A stretch of 64,000 bases of DNA, from NCBI GenBank assembly GCA_948470565.1, contig CAOKPF010000001.1:5866-69865 (forward strand), given 5' to 3'. This stretch comes from an uncultured Clostridium sp. GTDB taxonomy: Bacteria > Bacillota > Clostridia > TANB77 > CAG-465. Each line of letters begins with the position of its first letter. Position 1 is the first letter of the stretch. The notes under the pieces were generated by a model, which was given only the letters and a program-made list of their open reading frames with translations, ran no database searches and was not told the DNA's origin. A program made the position numbers and the translations under genes. Positions 15,810 through 51,740 of the stretch are shown piece after piece.

Positions 15810-16145
15810 TTAAGTAACAAAAAAATTCCAAATTATCATACATACCATACCCATTGGAAATGAAAATGTATAAGTAGCAATAGGCAGCCAATAAACGATA
15901 TGTTTATATTGAGTATTGATTTTTTTATTTAATGCAACACAAATTGTAATAAAGGATATGAAAATAAAATGGTATACCCCAGCTTCAATATATGGACCAA
16001 ATAAGTAAGTAAAAAAATACCCATTTTCAAAACATTCTTGTTTAGCTTTTTCCAAATTACACTGTCCAATGAAAAATTCAAATAAAAATAATGATACAAT
16101 GTATAATAATATTATTAAAAGTTTATTCTTTGTTTTTTTTGACAT
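15810..16145 (-). CDS. small 3-TM membrane protein, paralogue copy 4 (diverged C-terminus)
   Basis: About 95% nucleotide identity to the three upstream copies. GGGAGG RBS then ATG (MSKKTKNK...). The last ~8 residues differ (IWNFFVT). Confidence 0.7.
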   Translation of the reverse strand: MSKKTKNKLLIILLYIVSLFLFEFFIGQCNLEKAKQECFENGYFFTYLFGPYIEAGVYHFIFISFITICVALNKKINTQYKHIVYWLPIATYTFSFPMGMVCMIIWNFFVT

Positions 16146-16235
16146 AGTCATACCTCCCAATTTTTAATGAATTTTATTGTAATAGCAAATTTATTGACGA
16201 CATTAAAAATAAATCTTTAATATTTTTGTTTTTAT

Positions 16236-16583
16236 TTATCCAATAATATATGTTTCAAAAAAATTACCGATTATCATACATACCATACCCATTGGAAATG
16301 AAAATGTATAGGTAGCAATAGGTAGCCAATAAATGATATGTTTATATTGAGTATCGATTTTTTTATTTAATGCAACACAAATTGCAATAAAGGATATGAA
16401 AATAAAATGATATACCCCAGCTTCAATATATGGATAAAATACGTAAAGTACAAAATATCCATTTTCACCATATTCTTGTACCGCTTTTTCAAAATTACAT
16501 TCTCCAACGAAAAATTCAAATAAAAATAATGATATAATGTATAATAATATTATTAAAAGTTTATTCTTTGTTTTTTTTGACAT
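16236..16583 (-). CDS. small 3-TM membrane protein, paralogue copy 3
   Basis: Tandem 438-bp unit. Start at MSKK after GGGAGG (ORF track extends to 16598). Confidence 0.7.
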   Translation of the reverse strand: MSKKTKNKLLIILLYIISLFLFEFFVGECNFEKAVQEYGENGYFVLYVFYPYIEAGVYHFIFISFIAICVALNKKIDTQYKHIIYWLPIATYTFSFPMGMVCMIIGNFFETYIIG

Positions 16584-16673
16584 AGTCATACCTCCCAATT
16601 TTTAATGAATTTTATTGTAATAGCAAATTTATTGACGACATTAAAAATAAATCTTTAATATTTTTGTTTTTAT

Positions 16674-17021
16674 TTATCCAATAATATATGTTTCAAAAAA
16701 ATTACCGATTATCATACATACCATACCCATTGGAAATGAAAATGTATAGGTAGCAATAGGTAGCCAATAAATGATATGTTTATATTGAGTATCGATTTTT
16801 TTATTTAATGCAACACAAATTGCAATAAAGGATATGAAAATAAAATGGTATACCCCAGCTTGAAAATATGGATAAAATAAGTAAGTAAAAGAGTACCCAT
16901 TTTCAAAACATTCTTGTTCAGCTTTTTCAAAATTACATTCTCCAATGAAAAATTCAAATAAAAATAATGATACAATGTATAATAATATTATTAAAAGTTT
17001 ATTCTTTGTTTTTTTTGACAT
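16674..17021 (-). CDS. small 3-TM membrane protein, paralogue copy 2
   Basis: Tandem 438-bp unit, identical RBS/start context. Confidence 0.7.
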   Translation of the reverse strand: MSKKTKNKLLIILLYIVSLFLFEFFIGECNFEKAEQECFENGYSFTYLFYPYFQAGVYHFIFISFIAICVALNKKIDTQYKHIIYWLPIATYTFSFPMGMVCMIIGNFFETYIIG

Positions 17022-17111
17022 AGTCATACCTCCCAATTTTTAATGAATTTTATTGTAATAGCAAATTTATTGACGACATTAAAAATAAATCTTTAATATT
17101 TTTGTTTTTAT

Positions 17112-17459
17112 TTATCCAATAATATATGTTTCAAAAAAATTACCGATTATCATACATACCATACCCATTGGAAATGAAAATGTATAGGTAGCAATAGGTA
17201 GCCAATAAACGATATGTTTATATTGAGTATCAATTTTTTTATTTAATGCAACACAAATTGCAATAAAGGATATAAAAATAAAATGGTATACTCCTGCTCC
17301 AATATATGGACCAAATATGTAAGTAAAAAAATACCCATTTTCAAAACATTCTTGTTCAGCTTTTTTAAAATTACATTGTCCAATGAAAAATTCAAATAAA
17401 AATAATGATATAATGTATAAAATTATAATTAAAAGTTTATTTTTTGTTTTTTTTGACAT
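17112..17459 (-). CDS. small 3-TM membrane protein, paralogue copy 1
   Basis: First copy. Its start abuts the stop of the upstream 342-aa gene, suggesting translational coupling. Confidence 0.7.
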   Translation of the reverse strand: MSKKTKNKLLIIILYIISLFLFEFFIGQCNFKKAEQECFENGYFFTYIFGPYIGAGVYHFIFISFIAICVALNKKIDTQYKHIVYWLPIATYTFSFPMGMVCMIIGNFFETYIIG

Positions 17460-17461
17460 AG

Positions 17462-18490
17462 TCATACCTCCCAATTTTTGATATTGAACTTAATTGTAAT
17501 AGCAAATTTATTAACAACTTTACATGAAGTACCTATCATTGCTAAATTATTACCAAAAGACGCAAAAAAAACTTTAGCATAATCATCATTGTTTATATAT
17601 TTTTCTATTTCTTGGAACTCTGTAAAATCATAAATATCTGATAATTCTATATCCAAATTCCAATTTCCGTTATTTTGTTTGTTTCCACAAATGTTTATAT
17701 AGCTATTGTGTAGTGCTAGAAACAGATCACCACTTTCAAAAGCTAATGATTCATTATTTTTACCTGTATTAAACTGTTCCTTATTACCATATTTTTTAAT
17801 AATTTCATTTACTTTATTTTTAAAATAAATATTTTCCTTTATTTTTTCTACAACTTTTCCCTCTGTAATAATTATATCACTAGGCTTTTTTTGTAATGAA
17901 TGATTTAAAAATTCAGAGGATATATCATAATTACCTAGTTTTAGAACTAGAACTGCACATTTTAATATATAATGTTGTAACATTTGGGTCATATCAGATA
18001 AATAAGGTTTTTTATTATAATATTTACTAAATGCAAAGTTAACAATGTTAAATGAAATATTTTGAATATCATCATATTCACCATTCATTACTTTTTCGAA
18101 AATTTCTTTATATTCCTTATATTTTTTATTAATTTCTGATGATTGTTTAAGCGTAATAGCATTATTACTATATAAATTTTTGGAAGTAGTAGTACTATTT
18201 ATTATATCAATATCTTTTTGTAATAATTTCTTATATTTATCATAACAACTCAAAGGTACTTCATTTAATAAATTTAAGGTTAAGTATCTATTTGTTAATA
18301 TTTGTCTTTGAGCAGTAGGCAAATTTTTCTTATTACATAATTTTAATATTTTTTTATTTAGTAACTCCTCACCTTTTAGATTTTTTACATCAGAAATATT
18401 TATAGAACAACACATTTTCTTTAAGCAACCTAAACCAAATGTATATTTGGTATTGCTAAGTTCTCTACCACATAGAGTACATCTTTTCAT
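17462..18490 (-). CDS. hypothetical cytoplasmic protein with N-terminal CxxC...C..C zinc-ribbon
   Basis: 342 aa, MKRCTLCGRELS...GLGCLKKMCC. Extended -10 (tggtataat) and GAGGTGA RBS upstream. No other motif recognised. Confidence 0.6.
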   Translation of the reverse strand: MKRCTLCGRELSNTKYTFGLGCLKKMCCSINISDVKNLKGEELLNKKILKLCNKKNLPTAQRQILTNRYLTLNLLNEVPLSCYDKYKKLLQKDIDIINSTTTSKNLYSNNAITLKQSSEINKKYKEYKEIFEKVMNGEYDDIQNISFNIVNFAFSKYYNKKPYLSDMTQMLQHYILKCAVLVLKLGNYDISSEFLNHSLQKKPSDIIITEGKVVEKIKENIYFKNKVNEIIKKYGNKEQFNTGKNNESLAFESGDLFLALHNSYINICGNKQNNGNWNLDIELSDIYDFTEFQEIEKYINNDDYAKVFFASFGNNLAMIGTSCKVVNKFAITIKFNIKNWEV

Positions 18491-23869: not shown

Positions 23870-25159
23870 ATGGTAATGGGTAAAATTTATTTAGAAAAAG
23901 ATGTAGTAACTGCTGCAATAGAGAGGTTAGAGTACGTTTTTAACAATTTTGACAATGTATATTTTAGTTTTAGTGGTGGGAAAGATAGTTCAGTAATGTT
24001 GCAGCTTGCAAATCAAATAGCAAAAAGATTAAAGAAAAAATTTGATGTATTATTCATAGACTTAGAAGCTCAGTATAAACTTACTATAGAGCATGTAGAA
24101 GAAATGAAAAAACTTTCAAGAATAAGATATTTTTATCATATAGCTTTACCACTTGCACTTAGAAATTCGGTATCTGTATTACAACCAAAATGGACATGCT
24201 GGGATGAAAATTCTAAAGATTTATGGGTTCGTGATTTACCTAAGGATAGTATAAATATTTACAATTGTCCTATAAAAGATTTTAGAGTTGGAGAGGAGTT
24301 TGAAGAATTTGTATTGCAATTTGCAAAATGGTATCAAAATGAGCATGGTGGAACTTGTGCTTGTGGTGTTGCAATACGTGCAAATGAAAGCTTAAATAGA
24401 TTTAGGACTGTTGCAAAAAAGATAAAAAAGAGAATGTATAAAAATATTATATGGACTACTGAGATAAAATATAGGAATTATTTAGATGTATATAACTTTT
24501 ATCCAATTTATGATTTTACAACAGAAGATATTTGGGGAATTGTAAGTAAATTTGATTTTGAGTATAATAAAGTTTATGAATTACTGTATAAAAATGGAGT
24601 TCCAATAGCTCAGCAAAGACTTTGTCAACCATATGGAGATGATCAAAGAAATGGTTTAGATCAATTTAGAGCTTTAGAACCAGAAACATGGGAGAAAATA
24701 TTAAATAGAGTAAATGGTGTAAATTTTGGAAATATATATTGTAAGACTACAGCATTAGGAAATTTAAGAACCTCTAAACCAGATTTTATGACATGGGAGG
24801 AATATTCGGTATATTTATTAGAAAGTATTGGAATATATAATAAAGAATTGATGATACATTATTACCATAAGATTAAAAAATTTATGAATTGGTATGAAAA
24901 AAAAGAAGGTATTACAGTAAAGGATATTCCTCAAGAAGCGGATATTAAACTTGAAGGTAGAAAAAAGGTTATAAGTTGGCGTAGAATTGCTAGAAGTTTA
25001 GAAAAAAATGATTTTTATATGAGAAGGCTTTGTTTTTCTCAGACTAAAGGTGATGAGGAAAAACTAAGAAAATTTATGAAAAAATATCAAAATTTCCTTA
25101 CTTCTGAAACTGATACAGATGAGGATTTAATACAAATTGCTATTGAGGAGGGATATTAA
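23870..25159 (+). CDS. PAPS-reductase-like PP-loop protein (IbrA-like)
   Basis: SFSGGKDSSVML PP-loop. Roughly 430 aa with a long C-terminal extension as in the IbrA/DUF3440 family. Paired with a ParB-like gene. Confidence 0.6.
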   Translation: MVMGKIYLEKDVVTAAIERLEYVFNNFDNVYFSFSGGKDSSVMLQLANQIAKRLKKKFDVLFIDLEAQYKLTIEHVEEMKKLSRIRYFYHIALPLALRNSVSVLQPKWTCWDENSKDLWVRDLPKDSINIYNCPIKDFRVGEEFEEFVLQFAKWYQNEHGGTCACGVAIRANESLNRFRTVAKKIKKRMYKNIIWTTEIKYRNYLDVYNFYPIYDFTTEDIWGIVSKFDFEYNKVYELLYKNGVPIAQQRLCQPYGDDQRNGLDQFRALEPETWEKILNRVNGVNFGNIYCKTTALGNLRTSKPDFMTWEEYSVYLLESIGIYNKELMIHYYHKIKKFMNWYEKKEGITVKDIPQEADIKLEGRKKVISWRRIARSLEKNDFYMRRLCFSQTKGDEEKLRKFMKKYQNFLTSETDTDEDLIQIAIEEGY

Positions 25160-25647
25160 TGAAAGATATAGAATTTCCAGTATTAGATGTAAAAATGGTC
25201 GATATTGACAAAGTAATTTCAAATGATTATAACCCAAATAGAGTTGCAACTCCTGAATTAGTACTATTAAGAAAATCAATTGAAGCAGATGGCTATACTC
25301 AGCCTATAGTTACATATTATGATAAGAAAAATGATAAATATATAGTAGTAGATGGGTTTCATAGATATAAGTGTGCCAAAGAGTATTTCTTTTTAAAGGA
25401 GATACCAGTTGTTACTATAAATAAAGATTTAAAGAATAGAATGGCGTCAACTATAAGGCATAATAGGGCACGTGGAACACATCAGATTGGAGATATGTCA
25501 AAGATAGTAGTAACATTATTAAAAAAAGGTTGGTCAGATGAAAAAATATGCATAGAACTTGGAATGGAATTAGATGAAGTTATAAGATTAAAACAAGTAA
25601 GTGGGTTAAAAGAAGCTTTTGCTGATCACAAATTTAGTAGAACATAG
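25159..25647 (+). CDS. ParB-like nuclease domain protein (IbrB-like)
   Basis: ParB/Srx fold motifs: DYNPNR...GYTQPI...DGFHRY. Start overlaps the stop of the upstream gene (ATGA). Confidence 0.6.
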   Translation: MKDIEFPVLDVKMVDIDKVISNDYNPNRVATPELVLLRKSIEADGYTQPIVTYYDKKNDKYIVVDGFHRYKCAKEYFFLKEIPVVTINKDLKNRMASTIRHNRARGTHQIGDMSKIVVTLLKKGWSDEKICIELGMELDEVIRLKQVSGLKEAFADHKFSRT

Positions 25648-28151: not shown

Positions 28152-28499
28152 TTAAGAATTACCTCTGGATTTTTCTACTTCTTTGCAAAATTCAACAATA
28201 GCATTAAATTTTTCAGTTGAAATATTTTTAAGATAATTAGTTATACTATCATTTGTTTCTTTTGATATACAAAAGAAATCATGCAGATCTATTTTAAATT
28301 CTGTACATATTTTTAATATTAGCATAATAGAACAAGTATACTTACAGTTTTCAATTCGTGAAATATGTTCAATTGAAACTTCTAATTTTTCAGCAAACTT
28401 TTCTTGAGTTAGGTTATTTTCTAAACGAATTTTTTTTACACTTTTTGCAATACATTCTTTTAGTTTGTCTTCATTTGAGAAATAAGATAAATAATTCAT
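28152..28499 (-). CDS. XRE-family HTH transcriptional regulator
   Basis: LTQEKFAEKLEVSIEHISRIE helix-turn-helix. Divergent from the downstream operon. Confidence 0.7.
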   Translation of the reverse strand: MNYLSYFSNEDKLKECIAKSVKKIRLENNLTQEKFAEKLEVSIEHISRIENCKYTCSIMLILKICTEFKIDLHDFFCISKETNDSITNYLKNISTEKFNAIVEFCKEVEKSRGNS

Positions 28500-29041
28500 A
28501 TTTTCGTCCTTTCAATATATAGTTAATAATAAATTATATATATGATACATTATTTTAAAACAAAATTTAATGATTTAATGTACATATTATAAGTTATAAT
28601 CAGTCATCATATACATAATAAAATGCTAAAAGTTAATGTTTCCTAAGAGTGAAGTCATATAAATTTTTGTTAAAAGGTTACCATTCAAGGGGGTAAAATT
28701 ATATTTTTTATGTCATTAATACTTTTGCACTGCCTTAATTTAAGTAATAATTTTATTAAAAATATATAATAAAAATTAATACTAAAATTTATTTTTATGA
28801 TTAAAATACTATAAAATTAATGTTATTTTGTAAAAATCATTTTTTTACAAGATAATATATTTGCTGATATAACAGTGTTTCATTTACCTTACTATACCCG
28901 TGAATAGTAACGTTAAAAGATAGACTAGAAAAACATTTTTTATATTTTATTTAATATTTCTTGAATTATGTAAAGTAATATGATATAATATACGCGTATA
29001 TGATATTAAACCTAATATGATTATAGAAGGAGGAATTTTTT

Positions 29042-30331
29042 ATGGAAAAATTTTTTGGAGAGAAAAAAGAAAAAAATATATATTTAGATAATGGAGCAAG
29101 TACGTTAGCTTTATTAGAAGTAAAAAATACTACCGATGAGTTTTTAATGAATTATGGTTCAGTTCACAGAGGTAGTGGATATAACAGTGAAACTTCTACA
29201 ATGTTATATGAGCAAGCAAGAGATAATATTTTAGAGTGTATAGAAGGTACAAAACAAGATCATGCTGTTATATTTACTGCTAATACAACAGATGGAATTA
29301 ATAAATTTGCACTTATGAGTAATTTTAGAAAAATACTGGTATCAGATATAGAACATTCAAGTAATAGGCTACCATGGGAAAAAAATTTCCAAGTTGTAGA
29401 GTTAAAGACTGTAGATTTTAAAATAGATATTGAGGAATTAGAAAGTACATTAAGTAAGGAAAGAGATATAGAATTAGTAGCATTGACTGGTGCCAGTAAT
29501 ATAACAGGATATGTTACAGATATTCAAAAAGTTTATGAGATTTGTAAGAAATATAATGTAATTTTCTTTTTAGATGCTTCACAATATGCACCACATTTTA
29601 AACCATCACTTAATGATTGCGATGTTATGGTATATTGTGGTCATAAGATGTATGCACCATTTGGAGCTGGAGTATTAGCAGGCAAAAAATCTTTATTTAG
29701 AAATGATAGAAATGCTGTTACAGGTGGTGGAAATGTGGTGTATGCCAGAAATGATTTTACTATATATAAAGATGTACCATATATGCACGAAAGTGGAACA
29801 CCAAACGGAATTGGTTGTGTTGCAATTTCTAAAGCTCATGATATATTATATAAAAAGATTGGTGAGAAAAATTTATTAAAACATGCAAATGATTTATGTG
29901 ATGAAATAGATAAAATTTGTGATAGGTTAGAAGGGGCAGGCTATAAAATATATTTTGGTAGAAAAGTTAAGGGAGTACAAAGAACACCAGTTTTAGTACT
30001 ATCAAATACTAAGAAAAGTAATAAGGAAACTGTAGATTTACTAAATAAAAGTATTGGTAAGTATAAAAAGAATATATTTTGTAGAGAAGGTGCTTTTTGT
30101 GCTTATAGACTAATTGAAAAAATAAAGGAAATTGATGGACCTATTATACAAGATGAAAAAGGTCAAGTATTTTTAAATAATATGGTAAAAGTATCTAAAG
30201 GTAGGTATATAGCTGATGATGCATGTAGATTGGATGACAGATACTCACTTATCAGATTTTCAGCAGGGTTAATAAATGAAGTAGAGGATATACAGTATCT
30301 TGCAGGAAAACTTATTCAAATAAATTCATAA
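29042..30331 (+). CDS. aminotransferase class V / cysteine desulfurase-like PLP enzyme
   Basis: LDNGAST...FTANTTDGIN...HK(M)...SG(T)PN architecture of NifS/CsdA-like enzymes. Strong RBS. Confidence 0.6.
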   Translation: MEKFFGEKKEKNIYLDNGASTLALLEVKNTTDEFLMNYGSVHRGSGYNSETSTMLYEQARDNILECIEGTKQDHAVIFTANTTDGINKFALMSNFRKILVSDIEHSSNRLPWEKNFQVVELKTVDFKIDIEELESTLSKERDIELVALTGASNITGYVTDIQKVYEICKKYNVIFFLDASQYAPHFKPSLNDCDVMVYCGHKMYAPFGAGVLAGKKSLFRNDRNAVTGGGNVVYARNDFTIYKDVPYMHESGTPNGIGCVAISKAHDILYKKIGEKNLLKHANDLCDEIDKICDRLEGAGYKIYFGRKVKGVQRTPVLVLSNTKKSNKETVDLLNKSIGKYKKNIFCREGAFCAYRLIEKIKEIDGPIIQDEKGQVFLNNMVKVSKGRYIADDACRLDDRYSLIRFSAGLINEVEDIQYLAGKLIQINS

Positions 30332-30348
30332 ATAAAGGAGAATAAAAA

Positions 30349-31563
30349 ATGAATAAAAAAACTTTTTTTGATTATTTTGGAAATGTTCCTGTTAGTATAA
30401 ATAATCTATATGGAGATCCTTTTTTTTCATTACAGGTTAAAAATACTTTTGAAAAATTGGAGTCTTTGAAAAATACACAACATAAAGGTATTGTATCGAT
30501 AATAACGAAGTCTGAAATTACAGAAGAACAGGCAATAAAACTTTCAGAATATTCAAAAGCCTTGAAGCTAGTTGTACTAGTTTCAATTAGTGGTTTGACT
30601 AATAAGAAGGTAGAAGGAATGCCTTATGAATGTACAGCAAAGAATAGATATAATACATTATATTTATGTAAAAAATACAATATACCATCATTAGCCTACG
30701 TAAGACCATTTATACCACCATATAATACATCAAGACAATGTATTGAAGAAATTTTTAAGAACGTTTCTAAATCTGGTATAACTACGATGATTGTATCTGG
30801 ACTTAGAGGAAATGATGAAATTTTGTTAAATAGTGGAATTTCAAAAGAGGAAAAAGATAAATGGTCTTTTAGAGTAAAAATAATTCCATCAGATGTTAGA
30901 AAAATACTAAATGAGATGAAAGAGAAATATGCAATAACATTATTTGAAAGAACATCTTGTGGTGTGGCATATGTCTTAAATGAAAAAATCTCATATAATC
31001 CATATCAAGCAAGTCCACAGCTAGCAAAATGTTATAATTGTCCTTTAAAATCGACTTGTTTTGATAAAAGAGATGAGATAAAACCTACTAAAGATGATAT
31101 TGAATTTGTAAAATTGTTAGGCTATGATGCTCATTTAAATATATACGACAAAGGACAAATATGTAATGTAGATCCACAAAAGAGAACAGAATGTGAATCT
31201 TGTTGTACATCTTGTTATAAGCTTAAAAGAAATGCTATACAACTAGATAAAATCGAAAATGTGTCATTAGGAGATACAAGTGTTTTGAGGCTACTTACTA
31301 AGAAATTAGTATATGGAAATGGAGTAAGAGAAGTAGGAGATAAAAATGTAGCATATCCAACCTCAAGTATACTAACAGGACTTCCAATATATGTAGTAAA
31401 TTCTTGGTGGGTGTATGCAAGATCTATGCCAAAATGCTATAATTGCTCTTACTGTATGATAGGAAAGTATTACTCAGAGTGTTATAATACAGAAGAGATG
31501 GGGAGTAATCCAATAGAAGTTGCAAAAATGATTTGGAACAAATTGAATATTTCTGTTAAATAA
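30349..31563 (+). CDS. Cys-rich hypothetical protein (putative Fe-S protein)
   Basis: Three cysteine clusters: CYNCPLKSTC, CESCCTSC, CYNCSYC. Tightly linked to the flanking genes. Confidence 0.5.
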   Translation: MNKKTFFDYFGNVPVSINNLYGDPFFSLQVKNTFEKLESLKNTQHKGIVSIITKSEITEEQAIKLSEYSKALKLVVLVSISGLTNKKVEGMPYECTAKNRYNTLYLCKKYNIPSLAYVRPFIPPYNTSRQCIEEIFKNVSKSGITTMIVSGLRGNDEILLNSGISKEEKDKWSFRVKIIPSDVRKILNEMKEKYAITLFERTSCGVAYVLNEKISYNPYQASPQLAKCYNCPLKSTCFDKRDEIKPTKDDIEFVKLLGYDAHLNIYDKGQICNVDPQKRTECESCCTSCYKLKRNAIQLDKIENVSLGDTSVLRLLTKKLVYGNGVREVGDKNVAYPTSSILTGLPIYVVNSWWVYARSMPKCYNCSYCMIGKYYSECYNTEEMGSNPIEVAKMIWNKLNISVK

Positions 31564-31573
31564 GGAGGAGCTT

Positions 31574-32494
31574 ATGATAGTATGTAAAAATGGAGTACCA
31601 ACTTGTCCAGTTAACTGTATGTATTGTATGGCACAAAAAATTGATATACGTTCTAAATATTGGAAAAATACAGCAAGAATAGGAATGAATAAATCTTGTG
31701 TGTTTTTTAACAGACTTCCTCAAGATCCAAAACTTGAGGATATGAACTTACCATGGAATTTGTTAGATGGGGAATATTTGGGCTTTCAGGGGATAACTGA
31801 CTGTTTCTGGGATATATTCCTAGATGATCTAAAATTTTTAGTTAAAATGGTAAAAGAAAAAAATATAAGGAAATTATGTCTTATAAGTAAAATACCACTA
31901 ACTGATGAACAGTTAAAAATTTTGATAGAGATAAAGGAGAAACTTGTTGTATGTTATAGTGTAACAGGTTTGGACAAACTTGAAAAAACTTCTACAAAAG
32001 ATAGAATAAAGTCATTAGTAAATTTAAGAAATGCTGGTATTGATAGTTTCCCTGTAATTCATCCATATATTCATGGATATTGTGATATTGAATCCGTAAT
32101 GAAAGAGCTTTATATAAATAATTTCCATGAAGTAAATTGGAAGGGCTTTAGATACAATAGTCAAAATATGAAAATTCTTGAGAACTATATTCCAAAAGAA
32201 ATACTTAATCAGTATATTGGAAGTGGTGAAGAAGAGGAAATATTAATTGGAAATGACTATATTGAAAAAATCGCACAAAAGTATGATATAAAATTTGTTG
32301 ATTTGAAGGAATATTTACATAGACACACTAAAATTAAACTTAAAATAAATTCTACAAAAGAAGAGTATGAAGTAAAAATAAGAGAGCAGGTATTAGCTTT
32401 ATCTAAACAATGTGTTTTTTCTACTTCCGGAAAAAAAGAGGAGGTAATAGAAAACTGTATAAATAGAAGGTGTGATAATATAGAATTTATATAA
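31574..32494 (+). CDS. radical SAM-like protein (SplB/COG1533-like CxxxCxxC motif)
   Basis: N-terminal CPVNCMYCMA resembles the C.H.C.YCYA motif of SplB-like 'DNA repair photolyase' radical SAM proteins. Confidence 0.5.
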   Translation: MIVCKNGVPTCPVNCMYCMAQKIDIRSKYWKNTARIGMNKSCVFFNRLPQDPKLEDMNLPWNLLDGEYLGFQGITDCFWDIFLDDLKFLVKMVKEKNIRKLCLISKIPLTDEQLKILIEIKEKLVVCYSVTGLDKLEKTSTKDRIKSLVNLRNAGIDSFPVIHPYIHGYCDIESVMKELYINNFHEVNWKGFRYNSQNMKILENYIPKEILNQYIGSGEEEEILIGNDYIEKIAQKYDIKFVDLKEYLHRHTKIKLKINSTKEEYEVKIREQVLALSKQCVFSTSGKKEEVIENCINRRCDNIEFI

Positions 32495-32510
32495 ATCACA
32501 TAAATTACAA

Positions 32511-32538
32511 AAATAGGGGCTGAAAAAGCCCCTATTAT
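32511..32538. terminator. bidirectional terminator
   Basis: aaataggggctgaaaaagcccctatt hairpin between convergent genes. Confidence 0.7.
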
Positions 32539-32546
32539 ACAATTTA

Positions 32547-32759
32547 TTATTGGTTAGGTTGTTGAGATTGCATTTGGTTTGCAGTTTGAGCAACCATTTT
32601 TTTAACCATTTCACCACCGATAGAACCAGCTTGTTTTGATGTTAAATCACCATTATAACCTTGTTTTAAGTTAACACCTAATTCATTAGCAACTTCATAT
32701 TTGAATTTGTTAAGAGCTTGCTTTGCTTGTTTATTAGACATTTTACTATTTGATGCCAT
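32547..32759 (-). CDS. alpha/beta-type small acid-soluble spore protein
   Basis: KFKYEVANELGV...GGEMVKKMV SASP signature. GGAGGTG RBS before MASNS (ORF track start is 5 codons early). Confidence 0.85.
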   Translation of the reverse strand: MASNSKMSNKQAKQALNKFKYEVANELGVNLKQGYNGDLTSKQAGSIGGEMVKKMVAQTANQMQSQQPNQ

Positions 32760-33104
32760 TTGTTTCACCTCCAATTAATATTAATTTGTGAAGTTTTTAA
32801 ATAATTATACGAAGATATTATTTTTTTATAAAAATAAATTATATATTCTTTAAAAACAATTATAGCGTTATGATAATATTTTTTTGAATTTTAATATTAT
32901 TATGTATAATAAATATTATTTTGTTCTATATAGTACAATAAAAAGATTAAAGAAAATGAAAAAATATTATATATCTATTGGTTAAAAAATATTTCTAATA
33001 AAGAGATTTGCAAAATTTTGTTTTAGAAATACGAAGTTAATAAATAAAAATAGTGAGTACAGATAAAAAGTACTCACTATTGTAATAAACAACTGTTAAC
33101 TAAA

Positions 33105-33311
33105 TTATTGGTTAGGTTGTTGAGATTGCATTTGGTTAGCTGCTTGAGCAACCATTTTTTTAACCATTTCACCACCTATAGAACCAGCTTCTCTAGATGT
33201 TAAGTCACCATTATAACCTTGTTTTAAGTTAACACCTAATTCATTAGCAACTTCATATTTAAATTTGTTAAGAGCTTCCTTAGCTTGTTTGTTAGTCATT
33301 TTACTATTTGA
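33105..33311 (-). CDS. alpha/beta-type small acid-soluble spore protein (tandem paralogue)
   Basis: About 90% identical to the upstream copy; the flanking DNA is also duplicated. Terminator hairpin at 33052-33090. Confidence 0.85.
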   Translation of the reverse strand, partial: SNSKMTNKQAKEALNKFKYEVANELGVNLKQGYNGDLTSREAGSIGGEMVKKMVAQAANQMQSQQPNQ

Positions 33312-33433
33312 TGCCATTTGTTTCACCTCCGTTATTAAAATTAGTAAAACTAAAATAATGTTTTACACTAATAATTTGCGCGAATTTTGTAAAATAATAC
33401 TGGAAAAAAAAGGAATTTAATAAAAAATTAAAT

Positions 33434-33537: not shown

Positions 33538-34347
33538 ATGAGTGAGAAAACTAAAATTGTAATAGTAGACGATAACAAAGAATTTGTAAGATTGTTAAGT
33601 CTATATATGAATTCCCAGGAAGATATGGAAGTAGTTGGGGTTGCGTATGATGGTAAAGAAACTGTTGAATTAGTTAAAGAATATAACCCTGATATATTAT
33701 TATTAGATATAATTATGCCAGAAAGAGATGGTATATCAGTATTAGAAGATTTAATGAAACAAAACTTAAATCATGAATTACTTACAATAGTTATGTCTGC
33801 AATAGGACAAGAAAAAATTACACAAAAAGCAATATCGCTTGGTGCAACATATTATGTGGTAAAACCATTTGATATGTCAACACTAGCAAATCGATTAAGA
33901 GATTTACTTGAAAGCGATGATGATGATAGATGCACAATGCCAACGGCTTATTATTCAAAAGAGAGGGATATTCCCAAAAGTAATCTACCTGTAGAAGTTA
34001 GAGTTACTAATATCATTCATGATGTTGGGGTACCTGCACATATAAAAGGTTACCAATATATAAGGGAGGCAATAGTTCTTGCTATAGAAAATGAAGATAT
34101 TATAAATGCTATTACTAAGACTCTTTATCCTACACTTGCAAAGAAATTTTCAACAACTCCGTCAAGAGTTGAAAGAGCAATTCGTCATGCAATAGAAGTT
34201 GCATGGAATAGAGGACAAATTGAGATGCATGATAAGATATTTGGTTACACTGTAAATTCTAATAAAGGAAAACCTACTAATTCAGAATTTATTGCAATGA
34301 TTGCTGATAAAATTAGAATGGAAACAAAAGCAGTTGTAAATGTATAA
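33538..34347 (+). CDS. spo0A: stage 0 sporulation protein A
   Basis: REC domain (IVDDN...LLLDIIMP). Spo0A_C with [20 protein letters not shown] and ...[17 protein letters not shown]. Confidence 0.9.
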
Positions 34348-51062: not shown

Positions 51063-51740
51063 ATTTTATATGTATGACGGGCATGTCATAAATCTAGGGT
51101 GAAAGTCCCAAGAGGCGTATTTGTCGCGAACTCGATAGCAACTTGCAAAGCGTAAACCAGTAATGGAGCGTGAAAAGAAGCAATAGCGAAATCGTGGCTC
51201 TATGAATAAGAACTTGATATTAAGGCTTATTAGATGGATAAGTTGCCAAAACACAACAAAGTCCAAAAGACAAACGTAAATCTAATGGGTAAATCAAGAG
51301 AGTAAACGAGGAAAGAGTTATGACTTATCCCGTGAGGTCCTATAAGCGAATAAGTAGTAACAACGAATTATAGGAAGTCAGCAGAAGTCATAGTAGGTAG
51401 GAAACGAGCCAATAAAGGAAAGGAAGTCTCACGAATACTGAAGGACTGAACAATTTATAAGACTATGGAAGTCTTGAAATCTCTTGCAATTATCAGAATA
51501 AATAAAGATGAGAGGTTGAGCGTATCTTAATGGGTAATCCAAGAGATGATGTTGCAAGATAACGAAAAGAAAGGAAATAGACAAGCTATGAAAAAAAAAA
51601 ATAAAAAGCTAGGACGAAGAGGATTAGTTTTTGCCCTAGATTATTATTTAGCTTGAAATCAAACTTATAAATTGAACCGCCCATTGTCGAACAGAACGAT
51701 GCGGTGGTGTGATAGGGGATGAAAATTTTATTTTATAAAA
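51063..51740 (+). ncRNA. candidate large structured noncoding RNA (identity unresolved)
   Basis: About 700 nt with no credible ORF. GC content is markedly above the local background. The + strand is purine-rich. Internal near-repeats (cttaatgggtaa(a)tc(c)aagaga x2) and five RRAAGTCY motifs; several local hairpins. Confidence 0.4.

Follow-up and report, generated by a model that had tools for sequence, protein, structure and literature searches.

What do three tightly packed genes do in a clostridial chromosome, where they run towards a pair of spore-protein genes? They lie in a stretch of 64,000 nucleotides (nt), here called the window, from an uncultured Clostridium sp. (contig CAOKPF010000001.1, positions 5,866 to 69,865). 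The window has 25% GC, is part of the chromosome of a sporulating Firmicute, and carries the signal recognition particle RNA, lepA and tadA. The three genes code for a class-V pyridoxal 5′-phosphate (PLP) enzyme of 429 amino acids (aa), a cysteine-rich protein of 404 aa and a radical S-adenosylmethionine (SAM) enzyme of 306 aa, and they converge on two genes for α/β-type small acid-soluble spore proteins (SASPs). A prediction made earlier from the DNA letters (the original prediction) took this triad for an XRE-regulated operon of a spore-DNA repair or Fe-S/thio-modification pathway. We report here that the triad is a rare, horizontally mobile module, that its products very probably form one complex, and that the 404-aa protein is probably a circularly permuted radical-SAM subunit.

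Three genes form one conserved module

The genes of the PLP enzyme (29042-30331, + strand; Pfam Aminotran_5, E-value 8.1e-54), the 404-aa protein (30349-31563, +) and the 306-aa protein (31574-32494, +) are co-directional, are separated by 17 and 10 nt, respectively, and together measure 3.4 kb. All open reading frames (ORFs) were present as originally described, with the same identities and coordinates. Related loci were collected from assemblies and metagenomes (54 loci, L001-L054, 719 kb), and dereplicate to about 19 contexts. Profile searches over the ORFs of 50 sequences (49 loci and the window) found the triad intact and adjacent in 38 of them. The other 12 are explained by contig-end cuts, fusions or recoding, except for two degraded copies (L027 and L048). 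The 404-aa and 306-aa genes were always contiguous and in that order, with the 306-aa gene directly downstream, and the desulfurase gene immediately preceded or followed the pair wherever the contig was long enough, which gives two gene orders. Apart from the triad itself, no neighbour was shared by more than 3-4 contexts.

Gene fusions point the same way. An 844-aa protein of L014 joins the desulfurase (residues 3-429) to the 404-aa family (residues 428-842), and the same type of fusion was found in P0188 and P0194, among the representatives at 50% identity. In P0201 (820 aa), a non-permuted relative of the 404-aa protein (404 bits with the A4 profile, see below) is fused to a 306-aa-type domain (positions 5-262 of the A1 profile, independent E-value (iE) 3e-29). 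From the fusions and the strict synteny we infer that the three proteins constitute one module and very probably act as one complex, in which the fusions make the 404-aa protein appear to be the partner of the desulfurase.

The module is compact, self-contained and transferable, and it is rare. Of 5.8 billion protein clusters, the 404-aa family accounts for 49 and the 306-aa family for 132; a precomputed Pfam domain was absent from the former and was found in only one listed homologue of the latter (PF04055). The 306-aa protein occurs in 3 of 185,579 GTDB species representatives, namely in two metagenome-assembled genomes (MAGs) of uncultured Clostridia and in one Eubacteriales MAG. One homologue was automatically annotated by JGI as 'DNA repair photolyase', the sole name given in any source, and in the literature searched no paper was found that describes the triad, or a radical SAM protein with a desulfurase in anti-restriction. 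The module falls within the generic definitions of radical SAM and class-V desulfurase proteins; what sets it apart is the predicted permuted subunit, the predicted heteromeric pair of paralogues, the extreme rarity and the mobile carriage.

A divergent radical SAM enzyme of 306 aa

The 306-aa protein carries CPVNCMYC at residues 11-18 (nt 31604-31627). Cysteines C11, C15 and C18 of this CPVxCxYC motif were invariant in 23 homologues, down to 36% identity, as were C77 in GITDCFW and H163 in a conserved HPYI motif. The match to Pfam Radical_SAM (PF04055) was below the gathering cutoff (E 0.0064, 17.1 bits versus 29.5), no NCBIfam model matched the protein, and no model for spore photoproduct lyase (SPL) was among the NCBIfam matches at E≤0.1. 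In the AlphaFold2 model (pLDDT 87), the top 8 Foldseek matches in the PDB were all radical SAM enzymes (probability 1.00). The first was SPL (4fhc; E 1.2e-4, TM-score 0.45), followed by pyruvate formate-lyase activating enzyme (PFL-AE), HydE, SkfB and SuiB; the anaerobic sulfatase-maturating enzyme (anSME) was also among the fold matches of the radical-SAM pair. When the 306-aa and 404-aa proteins were compared with PDB chain sequences, as single sequences and as family profiles, nothing meaningful was obtained. This makes the 306-aa protein a divergent radical SAM enzyme whose affinity to SPL and COG1533 is remote at most. The SplB/COG1533 flavour that had been noticed before held up to this extent, with SPL as the top fold and with a match of the 404-aa paralogue to PA0069, and so did the view that neither downstream protein is a canonical SplB.

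With SPL and the COG1533-type proteins PA0069 and Rv2578c the triad shares a partial TIM barrel, the CX3CX2C motif of the 306-aa protein, and SPL as the best PDB fold. The differences are larger: scores lie far below the cutoffs (25 bits versus 360), the TM-score is only 0.45, the cluster motif begins at residue 11 instead of about residue 90 as in SPL, and the enzyme has a permuted paralogue and a desulfurase as its partners. With regard to the catalytic Cys/Tyr radical relay and the DNA-flipping β-hairpin of SPL, one invariant cysteine, C77, is present in the 306-aa protein. Furthermore, other SplB-like enzymes of the COG1533 type have been connected with neighbourhoods of DNA repair and mutagenesis (PMC3765255), and the triad has no link to spores or to SOS/mutagenesis neighbourhoods. 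Membership in SPL was rejected on the missing equivalog match and on the absence of SASP genes near the 54 loci, and membership in PA0069/Rv2578c because the 404-aa protein scores far below the cutoffs and the 306-aa protein does not match.

The 404-aa protein is probably circularly permuted

The 404-aa protein had no Pfam match. As noted originally, it contains three cysteine clusters, CYNCPLKSTC (C228/231/237), CESCCTSC (C282/285/286/289) and CYNCSYC (C363/366/369); its N-terminus starts at the 'PVSINNLYGDPF' strand and loop and has no cluster motif. The only NCBIfam models matched by this protein and its relatives were the COG1533-type PA0069 (6e-6, 25.4 bits versus 360) and Rv2578c (13.7 bits versus 430). 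A profile-profile alignment with the 306-aa family (hhalign; probability 96.7%, E 4e-10) identifies the 404-aa protein, at the level of sequence, as a paralogue of the 306-aa enzyme. The best folds for its AlphaFold2 model (pLDDT 86) were NifB, SkfB and viperin, with NifB on top (TMq 0.30).

An exhaustive profile search returned 531 representatives (at 50% identity) with E≤1e-3, 44 of them at ≤1e-30. The remote non-permuted relatives of the 404-aa family were aligned (alignment A4; profile of 373 positions), and share a core of PVxINNxxGDP, H-G-P..IITK, RP.I.G.N(D/T), FRKTSC, DYN.HY and CxxCx5C, of which RKTSC and CxxCxnC are common to the whole clan. These relatives carry an N-terminal 'KSFW..(G)C-x2/3-C-x-Y-C', and in the 404-aa family the same segment is C-terminal (compare NSWWVYARSMPKCYNCSYCMI of the window protein with KSFWVYANSKESGCFNCGYCVL of P0213). 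On single 404-aa sequences the A4 profile aligned as two pieces, with positions 55-360 on residues 8-324 and positions 3-40 on residues ∼340-380. The second piece had an iE of 1e-4 to 1e-8 in 25 of 26 members, and the exception was a truncated sequence. When the sequences were duplicated in tandem, 23 of 25 gave a single domain (positions 3-362) that began near residue 340 of the first copy and continued into the second, and the score was higher in each of those 23 (e.g., 247 versus 228 bits). Relatives with the canonical GCPLxCxYC (P0224 and plasmid proteins) and those with CxxCxYC align at the same C-terminal site.

Since the tandem-duplication test and the alignment make it homologous to the N-terminal segment of the relatives, the C-terminal CYxCSYC (C363-x2-C366-x2-C369; nt 31435-31455, +) would be the displaced SAM-cluster motif, and the 404-aa protein is probably a circularly permuted radical-SAM subunit with the SAM-cluster strand and loop at its C-terminus. 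The secondary structure of the model is compatible with this, with an N-terminal strand at residues 15-17 and, near the C-terminus, a strand at 353-359 followed by the cysteine loop and helices. The description of the protein as cysteine-rich was correct as far as the motifs go, but it missed the radical-SAM paralogy, with its probable permutation, and the probable identity of the third motif as the displaced SAM-cluster motif. No description of a permuted radical-SAM core was found in the literature searched, and this subunit would be the first circularly permuted radical-SAM domain known to us. A natural circular permutation of this core bears on how the fold is assembled, whatever the substrate. 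It also matters for annotation by motif: the 404-aa protein, for which there is no Pfam model, escapes a search that expects CX3CX2C at the N-terminus.

Besides the displaced motif, nine cysteines are invariant in the 404-aa family. They fall into a first set, C204 with C228/C231/C237 (nt 30958-31059, +), common to the whole clan, and a second set, C272/C282/C285/C286/C289 (nt 31162-31215, +), shared with closer relatives, which is likely the pattern expected of two auxiliary clusters. Multiple auxiliary cysteine sets resemble those of SPASM/twitch maturases and, together with SkfB, SuiB and anSME among the fold matches, they would suit a pathway for a peptide made by the ribosome and modified after translation (RiPP) with a sactipeptide- or ranthipeptide-like thioether, or for a small molecule or thio-cofactor. 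Such a role is very improbable: no conserved small ORF was found within 1.2 kb of the triad in 18 groups, the window offered no precursor candidate, genes for a transporter, a protease or immunity are not conserved, and thioethers formed from peptide cysteines need no desulfurase.

The PLP enzyme is a cysteine desulfurase of type II

The best NCBIfam match of the 429-aa protein was sufS (3.2e-52, 177.8 bits versus a cutoff of 475), and with the CsdA model it scored 126 bits (cutoff 607). The PLP lysine, K202, is encoded at nt 29645-29647 and the persulfide cysteine, C353 in RxGxFC, at nt 30098-30100. Seven triad desulfurases (33-70% identity) have H105, D178, Q181, H201-K202 and R348-x-G350-x-F352-C353 as invariant residues. 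Judging from these residues, the protein is a divergent class-V PLP enzyme of the type II (SufS/CsdA-like) desulfurases, and the invariant HK and RxGxFC mark it as predicted to be catalytically competent. It shares with SufS and CsdA the class-V fold, the HK motif with its PLP lysine and the RxGxxC motif with its persulfide cysteine, but scores below both family cutoffs. The neighbours scanned included no gene resembling SufE, SufU or CsdE, and SufS/CsdA proper was rejected on the scores and on this absence.

In PADLOC the desulfurase matched DndA and SspA (4e-23 and 9e-24), a generic class-V similarity. What the triad has in common with DndABCDE and SspABCD is a cysteine desulfurase of its own (DndA/SspA in those systems) as part of a mobile module that would modify DNA with sulfur. 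The triad lacks the DndC/SspD PP-loop ATPase, DndD/SspC and DndE, its desulfurase scores 62 bits with the DndA model (cutoff 480), and its chemistry would be radical instead of PP-loop. Membership in Dnd/Ssp was rejected, as no PP-loop protein belongs to the triad and the IbrA-like PAPS-reductase of the window (see below) is not conserved with it. The known anti-phage systems of PADLOC 2.0 were likewise rejected, given that the 404-aa and 306-aa proteins had no match and the desulfurase matched only the generic SspA/DndA.

The neighbouring spore genes are not part of the module

The two SASP genes lie at 32547-32774 (-; Pfam SASP 2.1e-27) and 33105-33326 (-; 3.2e-28), convergent on the operon, and Spo0A (33538-34347) follows beyond them. 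They are a tandem duplication, with a 227-nt direct repeat that is 94% identical (32546-32772 and 33104-33330), and the duplication is recent. They probably start at the ATG codons at 32759 and 33317, each of which follows GGAGGTG, and not at the upstream TTG or GTG of the ORF list.

Two SASP genes that converge on the operon, with Spo0A close by, and the remote SPL-like fold of the 306-aa protein are what could tie the triad to a pathway of spore-DNA repair or modification. The evidence from other genomes makes such a tie hardly credible. Searches (tblastn) of L001-L054 with the SASP, XRE, IbrA and IbrB proteins of the window gave zero matches: neither the co-occurrence of the triad with SASP genes, which the original prediction had named as a check, nor its XRE regulation was borne out in the 54 loci. 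The SASP and XRE adjacency is confined to the organism of the window and was seen again only in L062, which is the same organism from another sample. Furthermore, the closest homologous triad (70% identity) sits at a different chromosomal site, and the triad is found in phage-like and conjugative surroundings too, as well as in lineages that read TGA as glycine and presumably do not sporulate. No SPL equivalog model matched. A scan for the strict sigma-G/F consensus found none upstream of the operon and none upstream of the SASP genes either, and was hence uninformative. Because SASP genes are not co-conserved with the triad, their proximity is coincidental, and they are very probably irrelevant to the function of the module. 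The locus is not a lead on spore-DNA repair.

Genomic contexts of the module

The closest triad is in another Clostridia MAG, between mecA and radC-mreB-mreC, and other chromosomal copies lie beside rpsF-ssb-rpsR and beside xseA-nusB. In the group G0, about twenty clusters of 292-aa homologues are found on contigs of 165-181 kb. In the G0 metagenome loci (L004 and L037-L044) the triad stands at different offsets in contigs of 169-180 kb, which fits permuted assemblies of one replicon of ∼175 kb. The genes of this replicon are co-directional and nearly all orphans, with TerD and P-loop/RNA-ligase-like proteins and a large family of paralogous proteins (about 8 copies in 20 kb), and it recurs in many gut and anaerobe metagenomes. 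A PHROG scan of 18 of its proteins returned only TerD and weak P-loop/RNA-ligase-like matches, and a large neighbour protein had no phage match. The replicon is phage-like, and possibly a candidate undescribed lineage of large phages or plasmids. The 404-aa and 306-aa proteins had zero tblastn matches in 50,697 GenBank phages, a scan of IMG/VR with the family alignment gave no confirmed locus, and Foldseek against the BFVD viral structures gave generic radical SAM matches only.

Other groups have contexts of their own. The surroundings in G2, with PcfJ, two DUF262/GmrSD_N proteins (PADLOC NsnA-like), a small pVip-like radical SAM protein, an N6_N4 methyltransferase, an S26 peptidase, a topoisomerase (TopA) and TnpB, resemble a conjugative element. 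PcfJ pairs occur in G3. Two N6_N4 DNA methyltransferases lie immediately upstream and on the same strand in G4, which also has TnpB, and two Dam-type methyltransferases lie immediately upstream in L025, with a DEAD helicase downstream. DnaB, an AAA ATPase and DUF1828 accompany G1, and a DUF2726 nuclease-like gene accompanies L045. Upstream of the triad in L001 is a 343-aa protein with no Pfam or PDB match, which is not conserved at the other loci.

Copies with TGA (or a called W) at conserved glycine columns were found in L013 (2708-3574), P0004, P0057 and P0058, with 56-64% identity to the window. Read from these codons, they would come from genetic-code-25 (TGA=Gly) lineages or their elements, and therefore they suggest transfer across very distant hosts. 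The degraded G1 copies are frameshifted or truncated pseudogenes (L027 8800-10900 and L048 8879-10400, on contigs of 484 kb and 406 kb), and therefore the module is dispensable and decays in some hosts.

The triad may act in anti-phage defence or counter-defence through a modified (thio-)nucleotide or small molecule, in the manner of viperins, which make chain terminators, and not by marking the DNA of the element that carries it. Several neighbourhoods speak for this. The G2 neighbours match NsnA (DUF262) and a pVip-like radical SAM protein, as said above. A 114-aa protein (MKxINLTPHAVTI...) that flanks the triad in G0 and in an unrelated contig (L037 12071-12415, L004 11233-11577, L047 3852-4199) matches PADLOC Unk_01, a 'small protein sometimes fused to CARF' (1.5e-20), and may be an accessory or anti-CRISPR-type gene. 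The XRE protein of the window resembles defence-system and restriction-modification regulators (PADLOC HTH_VI 3.9e-16; restriction-modification 'control protein' 5e-9), and the remote relatives described below lie in defence-island surroundings, next to a DEDDh exonuclease and a P-loop ATPase. We nevertheless consider a defence role unlikely: neither radical-SAM protein matches any PADLOC model, no sensor or effector partner is conserved, the module is also found beside housekeeping genes with no island, and the ∼175-kb phage-like replicons and the orphan methyltransferases are no less compatible with self-marking.

Where radical SAM enzymes are known to insert sulfur into nucleic acid, the target is mostly RNA, and tRNA or rRNA thiolation (MiaB/RimO/TtuA-like) that tunes translation for the carrier element has to be weighed as well. 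The G0 replicon encodes P-loop kinase (AAA_33) and RNA-ligase-like proteins a few kb from the triad, and tadA is its neighbour in the window. The adjacency to tadA is, however, unique to the window. The triad proteins have no similarity to the MiaB/RimO/MtaB, TtuA or ThiI models and have no TRAM, THUMP or PUA RNA-binding domain, and with this a role on RNA appears quite improbable.

Non-permuted relatives on plasmids

Conjugative plasmids of Agrobacterium, Gluconobacter, Streptomyces and Nostoc carry a conserved module to which non-permuted relatives with the motif GCPLDCGYC belong (L057 6740-9985, L058 4635-9886, L059 5743-8038, L061 3655-8874 and, in Nostoc, L060 5773-7581). The module consists of the radical SAM protein, usually a DEDDh 3′-5′ exonuclease, a P-loop ATPase of ∼195 aa and, in some cases, an aldo/keto reductase; the annotation of the Nostoc locus shows no exonuclease gene. 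Thymidylate-synthase-like and nucleoside diphosphate kinase-like genes precede it in Streptomyces. The surroundings of these plasmid modules include genes for anti-phage dGTPase, GIY-YIG, TIR, WYL and HNH proteins and toxin-antitoxin genes, and another relative is located two genes after a Dam methyltransferase. No PADLOC (2023) model describes the combination of radical SAM protein, exonuclease and ATPase, and this gene content makes it a candidate new defence or nucleotide-modification system itself. The associations of the clan are consistently with DNA/nucleotide metabolism and with conflict between mobile elements and their hosts.

A possible sulfur-inserting machine

A working model can be built from these parts. 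The SufS/CsdA-like desulfurase would take sulfur from L-cysteine as a persulfide on C353 and would pass it to the auxiliary clusters of the permuted 404-aa subunit, which would work as a heteromer with its canonical 306-aa paralogue. 5′-Deoxyadenosyl radicals would abstract a hydrogen from the substrate, sulfur from an auxiliary cluster would be inserted, and the cluster would be refilled by the dedicated desulfurase. The substrate would most likely be DNA or a (deoxy)nucleotide, and the module would serve mobile elements (phage-like replicons, conjugative elements and chromosomal islets) in DNA marking, anti-restriction or another conflict role.

Substrate radicals capture sulfur from an auxiliary cluster in BioB, LipA and MiaB. 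A SAM cluster, one or more sulfur-donating auxiliary clusters and dependence on a cysteine desulfurase are shared by the predicted machine with BioB, LipA, MiaB/RimO and LipS1/LipS2, the last of which is a lipoyl synthase of two radical SAM proteins that jointly insert sulfur (PMC10332631), so that two cooperating radical-SAM paralogues are a further likeness. The triad differs from all of these in its dedicated, adjacent and sometimes fused desulfurase, in the permuted subunit and in its mobile carriage, and its proteins resemble the hidden Markov models of none of them; membership in LipS1/LipS2 or the MiaB type was rejected for this lack of similarity.

In phage M6 the PLP enzyme gp52 and the SPL-like radical SAM protein gp53 hypermodify thymidine in polymeric DNA (PMC8989533). 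The likeness is a PLP enzyme beside an SPL-like radical SAM protein on mobile DNA. The triad PLP enzyme is instead a class-V desulfurase with a conserved persulfide cysteine and not a decarboxylase, a second, permuted radical-SAM subunit is present, and there is no sequence match in GenBank phages. Neither a 5-hydroxymethyldeoxyuridine (5-hmdU) DNA kinase nor aGPT-Pplase/AADT was seen among the Pfam-scanned neighbours, a scan that covered part of the neighbours and for which the Pfam coverage of these enzymes is unverified. Nothing in these results spoke for membership in the thymidine hypermodification clusters of the M6/ViI type.

The dedicated desulfurase and the auxiliary cysteine sets suggest that the module inserts sulfur, for which the chances appear evenly balanced. 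The remote SPL/COG1533 affinity, the methyltransferase and mobile neighbourhoods and the precedent of M6 gp52/gp53 point to a nucleic-acid or nucleotide target, with a chance that we place slightly short of even. The whole chain, a heteromeric radical-SAM sulfur-insertion machine that would act on DNA or nucleotides in the conflict between mobile elements and hosts, is put forward tentatively. The best reading is still one that the original prediction contained in general form, an uncharacterised pathway of Fe-S/thio-modification that mobilises sulfur. A more specific version, possible but doubtful, is an unrecognised DNA modification in which the desulfurase-fed heteromer installs a carbon-sulfur modification on DNA or deoxynucleoside triphosphate precursors and thereby protects its carrier from restriction. 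The carriers would then be phages, conjugative elements, and a few lineages of Clostridia, of the Eubacteriales type and of code 25. The proposed carbon-sulfur modification is chemically distinct from the backbone phosphorothioation of Dnd/Ssp. If sulfur is indeed inserted into DNA or nucleotides, the module would provide a second, radical route to sulfur-modified DNA beside Dnd/Ssp, and would join SPL and phage M6 gp53 among the very few radical SAM enzymes that work on DNA.

Several observations weigh against the sulfur-insertion chain. The triad has no conserved companion in the form of a substrate-recognition domain, a nuclease or a DNA-binding partner. Adjacency to methyltransferases was seen in only 3 of the ∼19 triad contexts and in one relative, and methyltransferases are common in mobile DNA. 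The SPL fold match is weak (TM-score 0.45) and little better than those to PFL-AE, HydE and SkfB. The spacing of the displaced motif of the 404-aa protein is CX2CX2C, which is not the canonical one of a SAM-cluster motif, and the completion of the barrel by the C-terminal strand is predicted. No capsid or terminase gene was found in the 20 kb of the ∼175-kb replicon that were examined, and no locus in IMG/VR or in GenBank phages. Finally, the remote non-permuted relatives have no dedicated desulfurase, and the desulfurase of the triad could merely support cluster assembly.

This last point leads to a different chemistry, in which the radical-SAM pair acts on DNA without sulfur, by SPL-like repair or by an M6 gp53-like rearrangement, and the desulfurase serves its partners only by building or repairing their four Fe-S clusters, which would let the module function in whatever host it reaches. 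NifS and NifB are a precedent, being a dedicated desulfurase that feeds a multi-cluster radical SAM protein. The likeness extends to the three clusters of NifB and to its place as the top fold of the 404-aa protein, and the differences are the weakness of that match (TMq 0.30), the absence of a nitrogenase context and the mobile carriage. SPL as the top PDB fold of the 306-aa protein and the M6 arrangement of a PLP enzyme with an SPL-like radical SAM protein are also in line with non-sulfur chemistry (PMC8989533). The M6 PLP enzyme, however, is reported to be tryptophan-synthase-β-like and not class V (PMC8989533), and the scan of part of the neighbours did not reveal 5-hmdU kinase or aGPT-Pplase, the genes of which define thymidine hypermodification clusters. 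Housekeeping genes of cluster assembly are rarely carried by mobile elements for the sake of one enzyme, and the direct fusion of the desulfurase to the multi-cluster subunit, with no U-type scaffold, suggests stoichiometric delivery of sulfur. Taken with the fusions, non-sulfur chemistry seems improbable, and sulfur insertion by the desulfurase-fed pair is preferred.

Layout of the locus and other features of the window

In the genome of the window, the triad and an XRE regulator of its own make up a cassette that is inserted with tadA on one side and the SASP genes on the other. Its surroundings were searched for scars of insertion and for flanking repeats, and only AT-rich repeats at the level of chance and the SASP duplication came up. 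The XRE/Cro-C1-type helix-turn-helix regulator (28152-28499, -; Pfam HTH_3 9.6e-10) is divergent from the operon, and the AT-rich intergenic region of 542 bp between them (28500-29041) presumably holds the divergent promoters. A TTGAAT-17-TATAAT sequence with a TG extension is present at 28961-28989, and the promoter scan of the region was not above shuffled sequences. The 542 bp contained no plausible small ORF, and a comparison with Rfam, in which a riboswitch or T-box was sought, gave zero matches even at E≤1. Between the operon and the first SASP gene, a terminator-like scan found a GC-rich hairpin of 10 pairs followed by a T-run (32512-32536, -); the T-run is on the strand of the SASP genes.

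An overlapping pair of genes lies 3.9 kb upstream of the triad. The IbrA-like protein (23870-25159, +) combines a PAPS-reductase/PP-loop domain with DUF3440 and has weak DndC/BrxP matches in PADLOC, and the IbrB-like protein (25159-25647, +) is of the ParB_N type. The pair is another candidate DNA-modification or mobile cassette and was found near no other triad.

A tandem array is located at 15818-17512, with 3.9 copies of a 438-nt period and 94% matches. Its four ORFs on the minus strand (15810-16160, 16236-16598, 16674-17036 and 17112-17474) code for four hydrophobic paralogues of 116-120 aa that are 86-91% identical. A 342-aa ORF (17462-18490, -) adjoins the array and overlaps the start of the ORF at 17112-17474. 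Neither the array ORFs nor the 342-aa ORF have a Pfam domain, and the array resembles the immunity-gene type. Domains of a group II intron RNA were detected at 51154-51446 (+; Rfam RF02001, 97.9 bits, and RF01998, 38.8 bits).

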